NCBI GenBank assembly: GCA_036280655.1
Contig: DASUQI010000037.1
Coordinates: 8,735 to 72,734, forward strand
Length of the DNA: 64,000 nucleotides
Origin: Actinomycetota bacterium
GTDB taxonomy: Bacteria > Actinomycetota > UBA4738 > HRBIN12
Direction of reading: 5' to 3'
The position numbers were made by a program, and so were the translations under genes. Each line of letters opens with the position of its first letter. The stretch's first letter is position 1. The notes below the pieces were generated by a model, which was not told the origin of the DNA, did not search any database, and saw nothing but the letters and a program-made list of their open reading frames with translations. This document shows positions 2,436 through 60,460 of the stretch, one piece after another.

Positions 2436-3254
2436 TCAGGACCCCGAGCTCGAGCCTGGCTCGGCGAGCTCGGCGAGCGCCGCCGCCGACATCACGTCCA
2501 AGGGCGGCACGCGGCCGGTCCACAGCTCGAACGCGATCGCCCCCTGGTGCAGCAGGAGGCCGACGCCGCCGAACGCCGCGCACCCGGCGCGACGGGCCTC
2601 CGACAGGAGCGTCGTCGAGGCCGGCCGCGTGAGCAGATCCACGGCGAGGCCACCCGGGTCGAGCGGCGGGAGCGGCAACGGCTCCCCGCGGGCGCCGAGC
2701 GGCGTCGCGTTCACGACGAGGTTCGCCGGAACCCCGTTCGCGTCCTCGAACGCTACTCCCGACACCTTCGTCCCGAAGGGCTCCACTAGGAGTCCAACCC
2801 TTTCAGCGTGCTCCGGCCTGCGAACCGCCACCGTCAGCGCGGCGAGCCCCCGCCGCGCGAGCGCGAGCGAACAGGCGCGTGCGGCGCCGCCCGCCCCGAG
2901 CACGAGCGCCGTCCGCCCCGAGGGGTCGAACCCCGCGTCGACGTCGAGGAACCGATCGAATCCCGAGACGTCGGTGTTGTGGCCCGCGAGCCCCTCGGCG
3001 CCGACCACGATCGTGTTCACGGCCCGGAGAGCGCGCGCGTCCTCGGAGAGGTCGCCGATCAGGTCGGCGCACTCGGTCTTGTGGGGCATCGTGACGTTCG
3101 CGCCCGAGAACCCGAGCGCGGGCAGGCCGGCCAGCGCGGCCGCCACCTGCCCTGGGGGCACCGGGAATGGCACGTAGACCCAGTCCATCCCGAGCGCCTC
3201 GAACGCCGCGTTGTGGATCGCGGGCGAGAGGCTGTGCTCGACGGGCCAGCCCAT
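2436..3254 (-). CDS. aroE: Shikimate dehydrogenase.
   Basis: MGWPVEHSLSPAIHNAAFEALGMDW...NVTMPHK...LGAGGAARA motifs. Start is taken at the internal ATG (GTG one codon upstream is also possible). The upstream 30 aa of the track ORF would overlap the mltG stop. Confidence 0.85.
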   Translation of the reverse strand: MGWPVEHSLSPAIHNAAFEALGMDWVYVPFPVPPGQVAAALAGLPALGFSGANVTMPHKTECADLIGDLSEDARALRAVNTIVVGAEGLAGHNTDVSGFDRFLDVDAGFDPSGRTALVLGAGGAARACSLALARRGLAALTVAVRRPEHAERVGLLVEPFGTKVSGVAFEDANGVPANLVVNATPLGARGEPLPLPPLDPGGLAVDLLTRPASTTLLSEARRAGCAAFGGVGLLLHQGAIAFELWTGRVPPLDVMSAAALAELAEPGSSSGS

Positions 3255-45321: not shown

Positions 45322-45358
45322 CTGCTCTCCCCTCGGACGGCATCGTGCTGCGGCCGGG

Positions 45359-45430
45359 TGGGCGCGGCAGGTTTTGAACCTGCGACCTCTCGCGTGTGAG
45401 GCGAGCGCTCTCCCGCTGAGCTACGCGCCC
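45359..45430 (-). tRNA. tRNA-Val (anticodon CAC).
   Basis: Reverse complement: GGGCGCGTAGCTCAGCGGGAGAGCGCTCGCCTCACACGCGAGAGGTCGCAGGTTCAAAACCTGCCGCGCCCA. It has a 7-bp acceptor stem, an anticodon stem CTCGC/GCGAG with loop CU-CAC-AC, and a GGTTCAAAACC T-arm. Confidence 0.8.
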
Positions 45431-53419: not shown

Positions 53420-53464
53420 TGGTGGGCGCTAGAGGAATTGAACCTCTGACCTCTTCCGCGTCAA
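53420..53464 (-). repeat. 45-bp partial copy of the tRNA-Val(GAC) 3' half (island attR-type direct repeat).
   Basis: tggtgggcgctagaggaattgaacctctgacctcttccgcgtcaa is identical to 60288..60332, the 3' end through the anticodon loop of the intact tRNA. Confidence 0.85.
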
Positions 53465-53667
53465 AGAACGAACAGGCAACGCTGTGACCAGCGCTCTCGC
53501 AGTTCAGTGGCCGTTGGAGGAGCCACAGATGTACCGCTGGGTACAGCCTGGTCCCGTCGGCTCCTGACCAGATATTGACCGACAGTCCCTCGCTCGATCG
53601 GATGGCTCCTGAGCGGGCACATCATTCCCGGGTCACAGGAGACGCGAAGTGTTCCTCCACCGTCCGA

Positions 53668-54147
53668 CTAGCCTCGTAGGGCGGCGAGGCGAGGCGAGAG
53701 CATTCCAAAGAGCGTCGAAACCAGCTGCATACCGTTAAGGATGATCGCCAGCATCGCCAACGTGCGACCGAGACGGTCCGAGGCTCGGACCTCACCCCAG
53801 ATCGCGAAGATCAGCCCGACGGCATATCCCGCCGGCATGAGGATCAGCCCGGCCGCCCCGGAAGGGACCGGGGCAATCCATCCCCAGAACCATCCCAGGA
53901 GGAGCGAGGCCCAAACTATCGGTGGGACTGCCGGACGCCTGTCCGTCTCGGAGGGTTTGAAAGGAGCGGGAACGCGCTCGGAGGTCGGCAGAACGCCGTT
54001 CGGTCCCCACACATCGCCCAACCGCGAGGCCCCGACCGGCGCCCTTGGCGCAGCCCACGCGGGAGCCTCGGCGGGATTCTTGTGGCATGTGGGACAGACG
54101 GTCGCCTCGTCCCGCAGTTCCTCGGCGCAGTGCGGACACACCTTCAC
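53668..54147 (-). CDS. Zinc-ribbon (CPHC…CPTC) N-terminal domain protein with C-terminal TM helices.
   Basis: MKVCPHCAEELRDEATVCPTCHK…, then a Pro-rich linker and two or three hydrophobic helices. Confidence 0.5.
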   Translation of the reverse strand: MKVCPHCAEELRDEATVCPTCHKNPAEAPAWAAPRAPVGASRLGDVWGPNGVLPTSERVPAPFKPSETDRRPAVPPIVWASLLLGWFWGWIAPVPSGAAGLILMPAGYAVGLIFAIWGEVRASDRLGRTLAMLAIILNGMQLVSTLFGMLSPRLAALRG

Positions 54148-54204
54148 GCTGATTGTTTCGGCACGCGGTCGCGGTTGCCTTACGGAAGGGTCCGCCGCCG
54201 GCGG

Positions 54205-54783
54205 TTAGGCCGGCTCGCCGATGAAGCGACGGTAGCGGTCGCGGCACTCAACTGCCGGCTCGCCAGATCGGAACAGGAATGAGACGGGCGAGAGCTCGCC
54301 GCTTCTGTCGTGGCGCTTCAACACCACGGCGTACCGCTCCTCCTGGGAAGTCTCTAACTCGCGGATTGGGTCGATCAGCGCGTCGGCCACCTCGAGACCG
54401 TCTTCGTCGACGATCACGGCATGCGTGATGCTCTCGCGGGGGAGGCGTGCGAATTCGGCCTCGGGATCGTGGTTCCAGTTATCGAGCAGCACGAAGTCCT
54501 GAGCCGTAACCGCGACCAGAATCGAGCGGAACTCTCCGTCGACCCGAGCGAGGCCCGAGAAGAACGTGGCCTCCGATGCAATCGCTCGGAGTTTCTCGGT
54601 CCGACGCATAGCCGCCTCATGGCGGAGGGCCTCATCCTCCGTGAGGGATGCCATCGCCGCGCGGGCGTCATCGAGCTCGAGGTCGTGCAGGCCACCCCAA
54701 ATCACGTACGCGACGCCGGCACGTCTCGCACCTGGGAGAACATTGCCCAAGGCTGACCCGATCGCCTCAATCGCGTCGCTCAT
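54205..54783 (-). CDS. Hypothetical protein (192 aa).
   Basis: Long ORF with island-type codon usage. No recognisable motif. Confidence 0.4.
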   Translation of the reverse strand: MSDAIEAIGSALGNVLPGARRAGVAYVIWGGLHDLELDDARAAMASLTEDEALRHEAAMRRTEKLRAIASEATFFSGLARVDGEFRSILVAVTAQDFVLLDNWNHDPEAEFARLPRESITHAVIVDEDGLEVADALIDPIRELETSQEERYAVVLKRHDRSGELSPVSFLFRSGEPAVECRDRYRRFIGEPA

Positions 54784-55216
54784 GCGTCCCCTTCATGCGG
54801 ACCTGCCTTGCGCCTATCGGAAATCATCGGCTGAGCCCCCTCCCGGCATGAATAGGCGCGTGGTCAACGACGTCCATCGTGCTTCGTTACCAAGCCGGGT
54901 GTCGCAGCTTGCGCCCGATTGAGCTGATCCACGGCTACGGGAGCGGCACCTGAGCGACTGCGAGGAGGACAGGACACGGCGGGCCGTCCTGATCGGGATG
55001 CTACGGGAGATGGATGCCGAGAGTTGGCGGCTACTCCCCGTCTGACCGCACCCAACGAGCAACCGTGTCGGCCAACCCCTTCGTCGGCCACCATGTCACC
55101 ATGAACAGTCGACCGGTTGAGAACCTGCCGATGACCCACCATCCGAAGTGCTTACCGCGTCGGAAGGTGGCGTTGCGGTTACTCATGGGCCTCCTTCGGG
55201 TCGCCTAGGATCGCGA

Positions 55217-55684
55217 TCAGATCGCCGACGACTTCATCGAGCGGTCGGCTTGCATCCAGTTCATGCGTGCAGCCCTTCTGAGGAGCGGCTCGACCTCAGC
55301 GAGGTCCGCCAAGATCATCGCTCGTTCCGACGGAGTTCTCCCGTTGGTGTTCGTCGTTCTGCGTGCAACCCGGTCAAGGATCACGTCAGCAGGGGCGCTG
55401 AGCAGGACGACCGCGTCGAAGCGATCGCAGAACTTCGACTGGTTCCACACGCACCCTTCAACGAAGAGCGAGCGACCATCATCGGAGTCCAGTAGCTCGG
55501 TGATCTTCTCCTCGACCCAGAGCCACTCCCCGAGGTGCAACTCGTCTGAGGGCTCAAGATACGCGCGATACTCGCTCCAGCCCGGATCATCGGTGTCTAC
55601 GACGCGATAACCGCGACGGGCAAGCTCGGCGAGCGCCGACGACTTGCCGGTTCCCGACATACCAGTCACCAAGACCCTCGACAC
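55217..55684 (-). CDS. P-loop NTPase (AAA_33 / small kinase-like).
   Basis: MSRVLVTGMSGTGKSSALAELARRGYRVVDTDD… Walker A at the N-terminus. Confidence 0.68.
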   Translation of the reverse strand: MSRVLVTGMSGTGKSSALAELARRGYRVVDTDDPGWSEYRAYLEPSDELHLGEWLWVEEKITELLDSDDGRSLFVEGCVWNQSKFCDRFDAVVLLSAPADVILDRVARRTTNTNGRTPSERAMILADLAEVEPLLRRAARMNWMQADRSMKSSAI

Positions 55685-55813
55685 AGTGGAACGCTACCGA
55701 GTGTCAAGCGGCGGCGTCGCGGGCGCGGCCTCCGCCCCAAAGTCAGCGGCGGGATGGGCGCGTGAAGTCGGTCACGCTTCGGGAACGTACATCTGACGGG
55801 ACGTCAAGGCGCC

Positions 55814-56260
55814 TCAGGCAGTCAGGACGGGATCAGGTCGCCGCCTATCACCGCTGCCACTTGGGGTTGCGGCGAGTTGATTCGTCGTCGCCACCAACCA
55901 GTTGGTACCAACCACCGACGGGGTGTGACGCGCCGCCTCCCCGAGGTTTGTCGGTCGAGCGACGCCCTTCCATACATGAAGCGTCACCGTGGCTGACCCG
56001 ACCTCACACAGTGCGGCGTCGTGGTCCGCCGAAATCTGCAAGTCGATTGGGTAGACACGCGAGCATCCGATGCCGTGTGCGTCGATATCCCCTGCCAGAG
56101 CCTGGGTCGAGGAGTAGGAGGGAGCCGTCTCATCCCGGTCACCGGGCGCGAGACCCAGGGCGACAATGACCACGAGGCCAACCGCCACACCCACGACGCG
56201 CCTGACCATCCCGCCCAAAGGATGGCACCCAGCTAACTCTTCGTGCTGGCCGCGTGACAC
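55814..56260 (-). CDS. Hypothetical secreted/membrane protein.
   Basis: Internal start MVRRVVGVAVGLVVIVALGLAP is signal-peptide-like. No other motif. Confidence 0.38.
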   Translation of the reverse strand: MSRGQHEELAGCHPLGGMVRRVVGVAVGLVVIVALGLAPGDRDETAPSYSSTQALAGDIDAHGIGCSRVYPIDLQISADHDAALCEVGSATVTLHVWKGVARPTNLGEAARHTPSVVGTNWLVATTNQLAATPSGSGDRRRPDPVLTA

Positions 56261-57150
56261 CGGTCACGCGTCCGTACATGTTGTCGCACCGGGCTGCTAC
56301 GGCCTGAGCTACCCAGGGCCGTGTCGGACCCCAGCGCTACCTGTCGATTCTCGGCGTGACAGGGGGACTAGCGATGCGATGCCCGCGGGGCTCAGAACGC
56401 CGAAACGTCCGACGAGTCAGGCGGATCCGCGTGAGACACCCGCGCTAGGAGTCGTCCTCAATCAGGAGCGCCGGACCTGCAGCATCCTCCATGTTCGGCG
56501 GGATGGCATCCAACTGTGCGTACAGATGAGTTGCTGATCGACTGCGAGGAGGACCGAGTCGTCCGGGCGGTGCTGATCGGGATGCTGCTGGAGGGCGATA
56601 GGCCGCCGTCCCTAGGGCCGCCCGGGACTTCAACGCACCTCGGGGACGGTCAAAGGAGTGAAGCGGTCAAGCGCCGGGACTAGCGACCCTATGGAGCCAC
56701 CCCCAGCCCGAGCTCTTGACACGCTCAACGACCTCGCTCACATGATCTACAACCAACGCCTACCCCGCGGATCGAGGAAGTAGTTCAGGGCCGCGCTCAA
56801 ATTGAGTCCCGGTTGTCCTCCGCGAACGCGGTTCCCGTCTCGCGGAGGCGCCTTGAATCCTCCCTGACCGACACCGCAGCCTCGCGCACGGCGACGGCTT
56901 CTTCGCGAAGGTTGGCCAACCGCGCCCGGAGACGCGCTGCAGACTCGCGGAGACTGGCAACCGATTCCACGGCCGCTCCTCTCGAACAGGTCGAAAGGGC
57001 GACCGGTTAGGCGTGCGCCAACCGTCCAGACGACGTTACGAGCACCGTGTCACACTGCGAGCGACTGACGCAAGGCGTCTCGTGAGAGTAGCCCCCGACG
57101 CGTTCCCATCCTGAGAGGGAGGGGTAGGGCCAAGGGCGTTAGCGCGGATC

Positions 57151-57339
57151 CTAGCCACCTCGGGTCCGGGGGGGCTCGCTGGCGAGGTGACCATACGCCT
57201 CAGCGAGATGGAGGATCACCCTTGCAATCTCCTCGTTCTCCGCCTGGGCCGTGAGCGTTGTGATCTTCTTGGCGATCTCCTGGCGGGCCGTCGCTGCCGC
57301 AGCTGCGGCCCTGATCTGAGCGTCGGTATGCGACGTCAT
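57151..57339 (-). CDS. Hypothetical small helical protein (62 aa).
   Basis: Ala-rich with a helical pattern. Weak evidence. Confidence 0.25.
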   Translation of the reverse strand: MTSHTDAQIRAAAAAATARQEIAKKITTLTAQAENEEIARVILHLAEAYGHLASEPPRTRGG

Positions 57340-57519
57340 TTTGGTATCACCCCCGCGACTAGATGCTACTCGTCCACGTACGCAACCCGCCAGACGCAGG
57401 CTCGTCTGCTACTGGGGCGCGAGACGCGGCAGTGGTTCAGTGACCAGCTCATCCAACCGTGTTCCTGTTAGAGTCCTCCGGTAGCATTTCCGGCTCGGTT
57501 CGCATCGAGCGACCGTCCG

Positions 57520-57756
57520 ATGGCCATCGCTCCTCTGTCGTCGGCCCTTGTTCCCTACGGATCGACGAACAGGAGGGAGCACGATGGCCACCGCTCTCCG
57601 CGAGTTGGATTGGCGTTTTTCTGCCCGATCTGTGGGATTCCCCTCGAACGGTTCGACTTCGACAAGGCTTCCGAGGATTACTCCTGCCCGTTCTGCTGCT
57701 CGCAGCAGCGACCCTCACGGGTTGCGGCTCGCGCCGGGTGGGAGAACCCGGATTAG
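57520..57756 (+). CDS. Small zinc-ribbon protein (CPICG…CPFCC).
   Basis: 78 aa. Two CxxC pairs spaced for a zinc ribbon. Confidence 0.35.
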   Translation: MAIAPLSSALVPYGSTNRREHDGHRSPRVGLAFFCPICGIPLERFDFDKASEDYSCPFCCSQQRPSRVAARAGWENPD

Positions 57757-57951
57757 GTGGCGCATCGGATGAGCACGCACATCTACGGTTCACCACTGAA
57801 GGAAGGACAGGTCGAGACGTATCCTGAGAAACGAACGTGCTCGGAGGAAGGGTGCTCGACCCGACTCTCCATCTACAACCCGTCGAAGCAGTTCTGTTGG
57901 CTCCACGAATGGGTCGGTCCGCGACGTGGCGACTCACCTACTCGGTCATAG
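57757..57951 (+). CDS. Small Cys/His-rich protein (64 aa).
   Basis: …CSEEGCSTRLSIYNPSKQFCWLHEW… a zinc-finger-like C-x4-C…C-x2-H arrangement. Its start abuts the stop of the previous ORF. Confidence 0.35.
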   Translation: MAHRMSTHIYGSPLKEGQVETYPEKRTCSEEGCSTRLSIYNPSKQFCWLHEWVGPRRGDSPTRS

Positions 57952-58651
57952 GGACCCTGTGTCCGCGGAAGGACTCTCGCCGAAGAGCGTTAGAGCACCT
58001 GTAGGCCAGCTCAATTCACTCTGTTCATGTGGCCACTCGGAGTTCGTTCATTAGCGACCGCCGAGGACGTCCCTGCCTCTTCAACAGATGTCCCTGCCAG
58101 CGGCTCTGTCCCATCCACAAGGTGCTTATGCCAGCGGCGCGATCGCACGCAGTGTGATCGAGTGCGAGGACCGAGTCGTCCGGGCGGTGTTGGTCGGGAT
58201 GCTGCGGGGGACCGACCGTTAAGAGCGGATACGCTCTTCTATCTCAGCCAGAGATTCAGGGTGAAGCGGCCCCCACAGTCTCGTTTACTCGGAGTCATCA
58301 AAATGCGTGATCGGTGACCCTTCCACTTACGGCTGGAACGTCATCAGCGACCTTCCGGGCTGGACACCTACAAGGTCCGCGACTGCCGCCGAACTCTCGT
58401 CTCCCGGCCTCCCCTGACGACCCCTCACCCGTCACAACGGGGCCGACCTCCACCGGGCCAACCTCGACGGGACGAACCGCGACAGGTCCAACCTCGACGG
58501 GGCCGACCGCGACAGGGAGCACGTAGCACGACCTTCCCTGCCCCCTTGGGTCATCACCTCGAGCAGCCGCTCCTGATCGACGCCGAGGAGGCCGGACGCT
58601 CCGGGCGGTTCTGGTCGAGATGCTGCGGGATGACGGAGCGGGAGTAGCGAC

Positions 58652-58984
58652 CTAACCCCGAGGGTCGGTTCGAGTGGCTACCTCCGCAGGCGTCCCCTCC
58701 CGTTTGGCCACGAGGACGAATCGGTCGTTCTCCTCAACGACTGCCTCGACGTCCTGAATGACATGCTCGTGGACAACACAGAACTGGCGAGGGTCGTTCC
58801 GGACCCGCTCGTACTCGTCCTTCATCACCGCAATAACCTCGTCGCACCTCTCGTATCCGCACTCGCAGGCGATGTGCATGAACGAGCTGTCGGGAAGGGA
58901 TTCGCGGGTCTGGTCGATCTGTTCGTTGATCCCCCTCGCAACCGCCTCGTTCTTCGCGATCCGTTCCTCCCTGAAGCCCATCAC
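58652..58984 (-). CDS. Small CxCG-motif protein, paralogue 1.
   Basis: 110 aa: …HIACECGYERCDEVIAVMKDEYERVRNDPRQFCVVHEHV…. It is paralogous to 59438..59770. Confidence 0.5.
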   Translation of the reverse strand: MMGFREERIAKNEAVARGINEQIDQTRESLPDSSFMHIACECGYERCDEVIAVMKDEYERVRNDPRQFCVVHEHVIQDVEAVVEENDRFVLVAKREGTPAEVATRTDPRG

Positions 58985-59210
58985 GGTTCTCCCAACTCTT
59001 TCCTGGGTGCCAACCCAACGGATACCCGAAGTCGCGTGCCGGGAACCCCGAGCTGCTCATCGACCGCGAGGAGGGACCGGACGCTGCGGGCGGTGCTGGT
59101 CGGGATGCTGCGGGAAGCGGTCCGCTAGGCTGCCAGGCGGTCGATCTCGAACCACACAGTCTTACGTCCCTCGAGGGAGCGCCCCCAGCGGTCGGCCAAC
59201 TTATCCACGA

Positions 59211-59480
59211 CTACCAAGCCGAGTGGGGTCGATCCTTGTGCCCGTCCAAGTTGAGCCGGTCGAAGGTGAACCAAGGCCCACCGTCTACGACCGTCACGCG
59301 GATCACGGCGTCCCTCGCCTCGAGCTGCAGACCGATCTGGCCGTCTGCCTCAGGGCCGCCATGTCGAGCCGCGTTGTCGACGATCTCGGAGACCATCAGG
59401 ACGACCTCGTCGGAGCGGGCGGCCGGGAGCCGGTCGCTCACGAAATCCGCCGTGATCTTGCGGGCAATCCCCGGAGCGGT
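59211..59480 (-). CDS. RsbW-like anti-sigma factor / Ser-protein kinase (HATPase_c). Start is approximate.
   Basis: …VVLMVSEIVDNAARHG…IRVTVVDGGPWF…. The N-terminal part of the track ORF overlaps the neighbouring gene in another frame. Confidence 0.62.
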   Translation of the reverse strand, partial: TAPGIARKITADFVSDRLPAARSDEVVLMVSEIVDNAARHGGPEADGQIGLQLEARDAVIRVTVVDGGPWFTFDRLNLDGHKDRPHSAW

Positions 59481-59770
59481 CTGCTCATAAGGCAGCCGGT
59501 GCTCCACATCATGACGCTGATCACCGAGTCGATCTCCGGGTTCTCGTGATCGAGTGCGAGCGCGAAGCGGGTGGCCTCGCTCCGGATACCCTCGTACTCC
59601 GCTCGGGTGAGTCGGATCGGATCGGAGCATCGCACGTCTCCGCACTCACAGAGGTACGTGTCCATCGCACGCTCGAGCCCCTCACGACCGTCGGTGTCGT
59701 CCTCCGTCCACTCGTTCATCTCGCGGAAGATCGTCTGGTTGATGGCCTCCTGAGCTCGATAGTCAGCCAT
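59438..59770 (-). CDS. Small CxCG-motif protein, paralogue 2.
   Basis: Internal start MADYRAQEAINQTIFREMNEW…YLCECGDVRCSDPIRLTRAEYEGIRSEATRFALALDHE… shares the CECG-x2-RC…EYE…HE pattern with 58652..58984. Confidence 0.5.
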   Translation of the reverse strand: MADYRAQEAINQTIFREMNEWTEDDTDGREGLERAMDTYLCECGDVRCSDPIRLTRAEYEGIRSEATRFALALDHENPEIDSVISVMMWSTGCLMSRPLRGLPARSRRIS

Positions 59771-60113
59771 CGGGATGCCCGTCGAGGTCGGCCGATGAGC
59801 GCGACGAACCAGGAGCACGCTGCGTGAAGCGGGCGAGGAGCCGCACCCCTTCTCGCTCATCGACGACGTACTCGGTCGCGGTCACCTGGAGGATCTTCCT
59901 GAGCTGGTCGCTCGCGCCAATCAGGGCCAGGCGATGTCCGTTGTCCTTCGCACGGCGCTGTGCGTTCAAGAACGTGCGCAGCCCCGTGGAATCGACGAAG
60001 GTCAGGTCTCGAAGATCGAGGAGCACCCCCCCGACGTCGTCCTGCTCGACCCGCGTCAGGTGCTGTTCGAGCGTCGGAGCGGTTGCTAGGTCGAGTTCGC
60101 CCCAAAGGGCCAA
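59763..60113 (-). CDS. STAS-domain anti-sigma-factor antagonist (RsbV-like).
   Basis: …GGVLLDLRDLTFVDSTGLRTFLNAQRRA…HRLALIGASDQLRKIL…. Confidence 0.72.
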   Translation of the reverse strand: MALWGELDLATAPTLEQHLTRVEQDDVGGVLLDLRDLTFVDSTGLRTFLNAQRRAKDNGHRLALIGASDQLRKILQVTATEYVVDEREGVRLLARFTQRAPGSSRSSADLDGHPDG

Positions 60114-60287
60114 TCGGACGACCTCGTTCCTGCGGTCGTCATAGGATGTCGAACAAGGAGCGGGACGGGACCCCCATGTTGGCTCCCCTCTGCGTGTCGG
60201 CGCTCTCTCGCCGATCGGGTGGTGAACCAGAAGTTGGGGTTCCCACGCGCCAGACCGTGGGTCCGGGTCCGGCGCGAACAGTCTACC

Positions 60288-60362
60288 TGGTGGGCGCTAG
60301 AGGAATTGAACCTCTGACCTCTTCCGCGTCAAGGAAGCGCTCTACCCCTGAGCTAAGCGCCC
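60288..60362 (-). tRNA. tRNA-Val (anticodon GAC), with CCA encoded. This is the island integration target.
   Basis: Reverse complement: GGGCGCTTAGCTCAGGGGTAGAGCGCTTCCTTGACGCGGAAGAGGTCAGAGGTTCAATTCCTCTAGCGCCCACCA. The anticodon stem is CTTCC/GGAAG with loop UU-GAC-GC. Confidence 0.88.
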
Positions 60363-60389
60363 GAGATCCGGCATCGTACCGCCGGGCCG

Positions 60390-60460
60390 AGGCGGGGACC
60401 GGAATTGAACCGGTGTAGAGGGTTTTGCAGACCCTTGCCTAACCACTCGGCCACCCCGCC
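60390..60460 (-). tRNA. tRNA-Cys (anticodon GCA).
   Basis: Reverse complement: GGCGGGGTGGCCGAGTGGTTAAGGCAAGGGTCTGCAAAACCCTCTACACCGGTTCAATTCCGGTCCCCGCCT. It has a 7-bp acceptor stem, U8, an anticodon stem AGGGT/ACCCT with loop CU-GCA-AA, and U73 discriminator. Confidence 0.85.

Follow-up and report, generated by a model that had tools for sequence, protein, structure and literature searches.

The stretch analysed here is a 64,000-nucleotide (nt) segment of an Actinomycetota bacterium assembly (GCA_036280655.1, contig DASUQI010000037.1, positions 8,735 to 72,734 of the forward strand; hereafter, the window), and it carries a small island beside a tRNA-Val gene in which five copies of a short repeat are scattered at irregular distances, all in the same orientation. 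What is this repeat, and what are its copies doing between the genes of the island? We find that each copy is a fragment of a small protein-coding gene, here called the anchor gene, that arrays of such fragments are common in related loci, and that the DNA between them, the cassettes, is shared between arrays in which it has different neighbours. We consider it likely, with a probability of about 0.7, that the repeats are attachment-site-like (att-like) crossover sites, and that small cassettes accrete at the 3' end of the anchor gene or are exchanged through it.

A 25-nt core pattern, searched with up to three mismatches, has exactly five matches in the 64 kb, all on the + strand, and none in 100 shuffled sequences. 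Profile searches placed the same five copies at 54946-55014, 56527-56599, 58154-58218, 58569-58634 and 59048-59122, and a profile of the full gene lengthened the fifth to 59021-59129. The other 57 kb of the window contain no copy by either the core pattern or the profiles. Starts are separated by 1584, 1617, 421 and 485 nt. The first-pass annotation had reported five same-orientation copies at about these positions and had confined them to the island; both observations are borne out, as all copies lie between the 49-nt direct repeats that bound the island. Its estimate of 80-90% identity was a little too high: over the 60-nt core, the window copies are 73-85% identical to one another and 82-90% identical to the consensus of the family. 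Being nearer to that consensus than to each other, they appear to have arrived separately, with their cassettes, and not by local duplication.

All five copies are 3' fragments of the anchor gene on the + strand. Copy 1 (54946..55044) corresponds to nt 164-231 of the gene profile, is in frame, reads LSDCEEDRTRRAVLIGMLREMDAESWRLLPV up to a stop codon, and is 82% identical to the core consensus. Copy 2 (56527..56602; profile nt 159-234) is also in frame and 90% identical to the consensus, with its normal stop lost. Copy 3 (58154..58225; profile nt 167-240) has an in-frame deletion of 3 nt and keeps the stop at the family position. Copy 4 (58569..58640; profile nt 162-233) is frameshifted by a 1-nt deletion, and copy 5 (59021..59129; profile nt 134-238), the longest fragment, by a 1-nt insertion, with the stop again at the family position. 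This matches the earlier description of three copies that share a reading frame and two in which indels break it. A full-length anchor gene was not found in the window by the full-gene profile search.

The repeat is the last ~60-95 nt of a gene of 78 codons; its core comprises codons 56-75 (...LIDCEEDRTLRAVLVGMLRE) and is followed by a variable tail that runs through the stop. The question of whether a full-length protein with this ending exists elsewhere is answered by this gene family, whose consensus protein reads MRPDELERRLRERLDALGPAPRAELLHVLMLPDFERADRIGEFWGYPESRAFAELLIDCEEDRTLRAVLVGMLREADR. An AlphaFold model of the anchor protein is a confident five-helix bundle (predicted local distance difference test score, pLDDT, of 89), and the window repeats, being the last ~25 codons, correspond to the end of helix 4 and helix 5. 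Conservation in the 5' part of full-length genes is codon-periodic (0.91/0.94/0.73 at positions 1/2/3). Upstream of them a conserved CGACGGCGTAGCCTCCGGCC stands right before the ATG, for example at 4046-4070 of L137 and 219-243 of L123 (L numbers denote the related loci and contigs compared with the window, most of which are short metagenome contigs). Part of this upstream motif is the hexamer TAGCCT, located 6 nt before the ATG, which we take to be the actinobacterial -10 box of a leaderless mRNA. On the basis of the codon-periodic conservation, the five-helix model, and the conserved upstream hexamer, we conclude that the anchor is a real gene.

The anchor protein has no match in Pfam, NCBIfam, PADLOC, PHROGs or the PDB sequences, and tblastn found no match to the gene on known plasmids or phages. 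It has 5215 relatives at the 90% cluster level, all of them 78-130 aa long, 80-93% identical, and annotated as 'hypothetical'. At the 50% cluster level there are 2984 representatives, all short, many of which are chimeric open reading frames (ORFs) that contain the domain in part. When 185,579 species genomes were scanned with a degenerate pattern, at least 114 stretches were returned, and among the matches listed, about 30 extend to both sides of the motif; all of these are from Actinomycetota metagenome-assembled genomes (MAGs), with the motif as the C-terminus of a small ORF. Carriers include many Microflora Danica 'Actinomycetes' bins and MAGs labelled Solirubrobacterales, Rubrobacter and Terrimesophilobacter. 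The anchor gene is abundant in soil Actinomycetota. A divergent subfamily, ending in ...LIDLEEDKAARAVVFGLLREMER, shares its arrays with the main type (L183 5421-5606, L007 7848-7925, L095 1663-1744, L135 1058-1138 and L012 4928-5008) and keeps the amino-acid pattern despite many nucleotide changes.

Fragments of this gene are not a random sample of its length. A whole-gene profile detected 278 copies in about 110 loci, and their start positions are bimodal: 121 copies are full-length, and 104 start at nt 130-180, nearly all of the latter being fragments that run to the end of the gene. The hit ends at nt 230-249 in 215 of the 278. Fragments of the 5' part number only about 20, and are outnumbered roughly 5:1 by 3' fragments. 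When 97 distinct 3' fragments were aligned, identity to the consensus was 0.8-0.98 at nt 166-225, intermediate at nt 138-165, and at background further upstream. The core is ~90% conserved in sequence, and its variation is concentrated at codon position 3, with conservation at positions 1/2/3 of 0.905/0.935/0.808 in the fragments versus 0.933/0.953/0.827 in full genes. Among fragments with homology from nt 158 or earlier, constraint is relaxed only over nt 142-165 and cannot be told apart from that of intact genes from ~nt 170. A conserved fragment core and tail are expected if both cycle through functional genes, and integration into a gene's 3' end, unlike random decay, leaves just such an excess of 3' fragments with a fixed 3' boundary.

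Full-length genes and many 3' fragments together form same-orientation arrays across the ~110 related loci. Arrays of two to nine copies, irregularly spaced, are present in about 60 loci, and exceptions to co-orientation are rare. Many begin with a full-length gene followed by 3' fragments, and some hold several full-length copies; the window holds none. The 160 spacers have a median length of 675 bp (interquartile range 355-1165 bp), and of 253 spacer-to-spacer similarities only two fall within a locus, both of them short motif matches. ORFs pack the spacers tightly, without a bias in orientation relative to the repeat (38 antisense, 37 sense).

Comparison of loci shows one and the same spacer beside different neighbours, with homology that spans repeat to repeat. 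Cassette C1 (~265 bp, with one 77-aa ORF predicted to have two transmembrane segments) is found in four different contexts (L023, L118, L126, and L144/L153/L155). Cassette C4 (~270 bp) is shared by L007, L137 and L154, C8 (~520-570 bp) by L023, L141 and L179, C10 (~262 bp) by L118 and L131, and C15 (~1025 bp) by L126 and L185, while C2 and C3 (~355 bp each) stand behind different cassettes in L045 and L144. The window contributes to this pool: its cassette at 58641-59020 (C22) recurs at 2779-3234 of the unrelated soil contig L165, with 80% identity over 342 nt, where it is likewise flanked by two 3' fragments. The gene family of its ORF (58652-58984) adjoins repeats in five other loci, in either orientation.

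The fixed boundary at the stop codon, the 3' excess, the co-orientation, the mutually unrelated modules, and the independent assortment of cassettes point to serial insertion at the 3' end of a gene. Under this reading, small modules (usually one to three genes, median 675 bp) would each carry one segment of the anchor gene end, and recombination inside the conserved core would insert, excise or swap them. Each event would leave a same-orientation copy of the gene end at every module border and, where a full-length anchor gene is present, would restore its 3' end; repeated events would build the arrays. That the repeats are the substrate of crossover and that the modules move as units is what we infer from the distribution of fragments and cassettes. 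The first-pass annotation had offered, as one of two readings, decaying duplicates of a gene's 3' end that bound gene modules. Its gene 3' end and its module borders are retained here; its local duplicates of one island gene are not.

Several results weigh against the reading of the repeats as crossover sites. Of the full-length copies, 28 of 75 (37%) are disrupted, which implies that much of the anchor family is decaying. L160 and L161 diverge inside a spacer, not at a repeat. Movement of a single cassette was not directly observed in these comparisons, and repeats in short metagenome contigs can yield chimeric assemblies. Those pairs of shared cassettes that can be read give differing exchange points, at ~nt 150 for C15 and at nt 208 or later for C2. 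Finally, a Pfam census of 134 neighbouring ORFs revealed no recurrent recombinase (Phage_integrase in 2 of 134, rve in 2 of 134).

Where shared cassettes stand in different contexts, the tail past the core goes with the downstream cassette and nt ~138-165 with the upstream one, and the pooled mismatch profiles cross inside the core. At the level of these alignments, cassette linkage is shown to switch sides within the core. An apparent crossover step at nt ~190 in the mismatch profiles vanished after truncated fragments were excluded, and our claim is limited to the core. A site-specific recombinase that is not linked to the arrays may carry out the crossover; we put this at somewhat under an even chance, as it is favoured by the fixed 3' boundary and the compact cassettes. 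Host homologous recombination or gene conversion acting on ~60 nt of near-identity is also possible, with the odds against it. It is favoured by the sharp, homogenised core, by the absence of a linked enzyme, and by the variable exchange points, which fit homologous recombination better than one fixed crossover. No recombinase recurs within the 4-10 kb flanks of related loci, and clustering all ORFs of the loci gave no recurrent neighbour gene. A 'kinase' neighbour cluster seen in 56 loci was an artefact of antisense ORFs across the anchor gene that had been joined by single linkage. Three 20-kb contexts hold ordinary accessory genes; in one of them, L203, a truncated integrase lies between the array and a tRNA-Pro.

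There is a substantial chance, though well below even, that soil Actinomycetota have in these arrays a dedicated platform for gene capture, one that functions like an integron and uses the anchor 3' end as universal attachment site. Excision of one-gene cassettes as circles, and their re-insertion, would then depend on a recombinase encoded elsewhere or be assisted by the anchor protein itself.

Among the explanations that assign the repeats another nature, pure decay survives best, and we regard it as improbable. It holds that tandem paralogues of a small multicopy gene are turning into pseudogenes, with the 3' fragments as leftovers of deletion that have no role in the movement of DNA. The 37% of full-length DNA copies that are disrupted agree with it, as do the 22% of fragments that are frameshifted in the core, the occurrence of 5' and internal fragments, and the location of some breakpoints inside spacers. 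However, decay does not account for a ~5:1 ratio of 3' to 5' fragments, almost all ending at the stop of the gene, nor for fragment cores that are as conserved as intact genes, unlike unconstrained relics. It also leaves aside the identical cassettes that have different neighbours and whose homology ends at the repeats, and the copies in the window are not each other's closest relatives.

That the fragments are translated, as a shared C-terminal module of various small proteins or as independent micro-proteins, is very improbable. In its favour are the reading frame preserved in three of the five window copies, the codon periodicity retained by fragment cores, and a few ORFs that read through the motif into longer products, such as one of 334 aa in L148. 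Against this, the open frames upstream of the fragments are mostly 20-60 codons long and have no conserved start, 22% of fragments are frameshifted in the core, and of the five helices in the bundle a fragment spans no more than helix 5 and the end of helix 4. The real cassette ORFs stand apart from the repeats, some on one strand and some on the other. From the core frameshifts and the short upstream frames without a conserved start, we conclude that the fragments are not translated units.

The first-pass annotation had also proposed a non-coding structured element (an operator, a repetitive extragenic palindromic (REP)-like site, a small RNA gene, or a folded site like attC, the recombination site of integron cassettes). 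In this explanation the repeat acts as RNA (small RNA, riboswitch or terminator) or as folded single-stranded DNA, and its coding appearance is incidental; we would be greatly surprised if it were correct. In its favour are a small palindrome in the core, CCGGA-CGC-TCCGG, and the position of the repeats at cassette borders, as for attC. However, an Rfam search of the island matched two tRNAs only, and single copies fold no better than shuffled sequences on either strand (z from -1.3 to +2.1). The covariance analysis suggested for the copies was carried out with RNAalifold on 140 distinct copies from many genomes, and returned -0.01 kcal/mol, with no consensus structure and no covariation. The 13-nt palindrome is paired in 84.6% of cells versus 83.3% in shuffles, and its level was reached by 4 of 500 shuffles; we consider it marginal as evidence for structure, since such a level is attainable from relatedness alone. 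No promoter-like or terminator-like sites coincide with the window copies. Variation concentrated at codon position 3, and a divergent subfamily that preserves the amino-acid pattern LIDLEEDKAARAVVFGLLREMER through many nucleotide changes, are likewise at odds with a structured element. The likeness to attC fails in folding and holds as a functional analogy, that of a recombination site at cassette boundaries.

Two further candidates are ruled out: a clustered regularly interspaced short palindromic repeats (CRISPR) array, with short identical repeats and regular spacers of 25-50 nt, is incompatible with spacing of 421-1617 nt and copies 73-85% identical, as the first-pass annotation had already held, and a genome-wide REP or miniature inverted-repeat transposable element (MITE), which it had allowed as an alternative, with the absence of copies from the other 57 kb, the clustered and co-oriented arrangement of copies elsewhere, and a repeat that is not palindromic in nature.

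The island that carries the window array extends over 53469..60287 (6.8 kb), with a guanine-cytosine (GC) content of 62-66% versus 67-74% in the flanks. It is bounded by a 49-nt direct repeat (53420-53468 and 60288-60336, 98% identical) that is the 3' part of tRNA-Val(GAC). The tRNA gene occupies 60288..60362 on the - strand, its 3' 49 nt (60288-60336) being the proximal att repeat, and the distal att repeat (53420..53468, - strand) is the copy of these 49 nt. Since one end carries an intact tRNA, the opposite end a direct repeat of that tRNA's 3' part, and the GC content is atypical, this is a tRNA-integrated island. A second tRNA-Val (CAC) lies 15 kb upstream at 45357-45430, and a tRNA-Cys (60389-60460) directly adjoins tRNA-Val(GAC). 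Neither the ORF list nor family searches gave an integrase gene in the island; STAS and HATPase genes adjoin the tRNA-Val instead. The recognisable island genes encode a zinc-ribbon membrane protein, an AAA_18 kinase-like protein, a STAS anti-sigma antagonist, and a truncated HATPase_c_2 protein, and all other ORFs are small, without a family assignment from Pfam, NCBIfam, PADLOC or PHROGs. A phage, plasmid or defence element was considered and rejected, as a viral-contig scan, tblastn against phages and plasmids, PHROGs, and PADLOC yielded nothing recognisable.

The cassette between copies 1 and 2 (55045..56526, - strand) contains a 51-aa ORF, the AAA_18 P-loop kinase-like gene (55217-55684), and a predicted protein of 148 aa (55814-56260), and its gene order is also found in the public contigs L197-L200. 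Between copies 2 and 3 (56603..58153), ORFs lie on both strands (56797-56970 and 57151-57339 on the - strand, 57520-57756 and 57757-57951 on the + strand), none with a family match. The cassette between copies 3 and 4 (58226..58568, + strand) is short and includes a decayed 15-nt-periodic stretch at 58437-58526. There, five tandem 15-nt units on the + strand share one frame and would encode A/N-L-D-G-type pentapeptide repeats, with no Pfam match; this stretch, inside the shortest cassette, looks like the remnant of a decayed pentapeptide-repeat gene. The cassette between copies 4 and 5 (58641..59020, - strand) has a single 110-aa ORF at 58652-58984. The product of this ORF and that of 59438-59860 (- strand) are paralogous island proteins of 110-140 aa that share the pattern ...CECG..C...YE.VR...RF..., and the unannotated 110-140 aa family with the CECG pattern was also seen in L107, L165, L175 and L183. 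Next to the STAS gene, the HATPase_c_2 gene (59125-59645, - strand) is broken into two ORFs that overlap (59211-59645 and 59125-59274), and its match covers only positions 11-88 of the 127 in the profile. This anti-sigma-factor kinase gene is probably a frameshifted pseudogene.

Other records of the window's island bear on its mobility. L197 is the integrated form with chromosomal flank. In L201 (Logan, SRR7186550), 53469... is joined to ...60287 through a single copy of the 49-nt att repeat. An excised circle of the island, or a head-to-tail tandem, would produce such a junction, though L201 is a single short contig that crosses an exact repeat of 45 nt and may be an assembly chimera. L201 matches the window at 53420-55397, 60075-60336 and 59035-59086. 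It is without 59087-60074, and its breakpoints are located inside repeat 5 (...GGACCGGACGCTG, then GCTAGG... past the break) and at the start of the STAS gene. More than 20 independent sequencing runs gave contigs of the island that all stop at the same base, 56566, inside repeat 2 (L198-L200, L206-L209); a repeat present in many contexts within those communities would have this effect. An island protein of 192 aa has exact records in 49 collection blocks, only on contigs shorter than 5 kb. The element systematically breaks short-read assemblies. Public contigs showed no single-cassette variants of the window's island; they are collinear up to the break at repeat 2, and only L201 differs. In the best reading, the window contains a five-copy array that lost, or never had, its full-length gene, inside a mobile tRNA-Val island.

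A tRNA is present in 11 of 45 loci, six of which resemble the window in having their array bracketed by a partial tRNA copy. Arrays bracketed by a tRNA gene and a partial copy of 37-49 nt were seen in L003, L010, L045, L055, L137, L183 and L202; no intact integrase was seen in these tRNA-bracketed islands. The bracketing tRNAs of other arrays are Glu, Gly, Gln, Asp, Met and Val, and in L183 and L202 a tRNA-Val lies just past the array. L003 and L010 carry two partial tRNA copies each, which suggests stacked islands. One MAG contig of 1.03 Mb holds three separate arrays. A second conserved motif of ~35 nt, GCGCAnCGGGAGCCCGCGCCGCACGGCGAGCCGGCGGTC(TAG), has the same orientation as the anchor gene and 12 exact 25-mers in 201 loci. 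It is positioned straight after a repeat, straight before the next repeat, or within a spacer, and its sites outside the window include L154 3395-3435, L115 19473-19497, L157 2988-3012 and L141 2178-2202.

Gene trading among uncultured soil Actinomycetota is little understood, and the 60-nt core offers a handle on hundreds of small cassettes; it could be used as an anchor for polymerase chain reaction (PCR) or read mining of the cassette pool, as attC primers are for integrons. The anchor gene has thousands of variants and no annotation; its protein, like the missing recombinase, is a concrete target. If the proposal of a gene-capture platform is true, these thousands of metagenome variants represent a large untapped pool of mobile accessory genes. 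If exchange is purely homologous, the arrays are a clear natural case of a short conserved gene segment kept as a portable recombination site.

Complete integrons have been reported absent from Actinobacteria (PMC4889954). Integrons resemble the arrays described here in having compact, mostly single-gene cassettes with a repeated element at every border, and cassettes that have no relation to one another inside an array yet reappear, in other orders, in other arrays. However, integrons have IntI, and here there is no IntI and no consistently adjacent integrase, with none in the island and Phage_integrase in only 2 of the 134 neighbouring ORFs. The integron attC is conserved in structure and folds, whereas the present repeat derives from a protein-coding gene, is conserved in sequence (~90%), and has no fold. 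Integron cassette ORFs are co-oriented behind a common promoter, whereas here 38 are antisense and 37 sense, and the window has genes on both strands. As IntI, a folded attC, and co-oriented ORFs were all tested and failed, we rule out an integron.

Co-oriented fragments of a conserved gene followed by variable DNA are also a feature of the orphan toxin/immunity modules past contact-dependent inhibition (CDI) and rearrangement hotspot (Rhs) loci, which are thought to swap by homologous recombination. In CDI/Rhs modules the fragment is fused in frame to a toxin domain, whereas here the stop codon closes it, and separate genes, on one strand or the other, make up the variable DNA.

A further comparison is with the tycheposons of Prochlorococcus, in which islands adjoining tRNA genes form by successive integrations that push older elements inward (bioRxiv 10.1101/2020.12.28.424599). 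They share with the present loci the tRNA-side location, partial att copies scattered inside, and integrase-less remnants, and the tRNA-Val of the window with its 49-nt repeat is of that kind. In tycheposons, however, the internal repeats are partial tRNAs and the elements have tyrosine recombinases, whereas here protein-gene fragments are nested in a tRNA-bounded island.

Tandem modules with a repeated target-gene 3' end at their borders are known from staphylococcal cassette chromosome (SCC) elements and from the ssrA islands of Dehalococcoides, and in this type of accretion some modules lack a recombinase and are termed 'cis-mobilizable elements' (PMC3146451). The first-pass statement that nothing in this class has been described was too strong, although we found no published description of the anchor family or its arrays in the open-access literature. 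In SCC/SCCmec at rlmH (orfX) and in the Dehalococcoides ssrA islands, as here, the 3' end of the target is directly repeated at module borders, mutually unrelated modules stack by the target, some without a recombinase, and incoming DNA restores the 3' end. In those systems the repeats are 15-20 bp, compared with a 60-nt core within 70-100 nt of homology here. Their modules are 5-60 kb and often have a serine recombinase (Ccr, DsiB), compared with a median of 675 bp and none linked, and their targets are single-copy housekeeping genes, compared with a multicopy, island-borne gene that can form several arrays per genome. The arrays described here are distinguished by mostly single-gene cassettes of a few hundred bp with no linked recombinase, by a multicopy anchor gene that is itself borne on islands, and by a long, 60-nt coding core.

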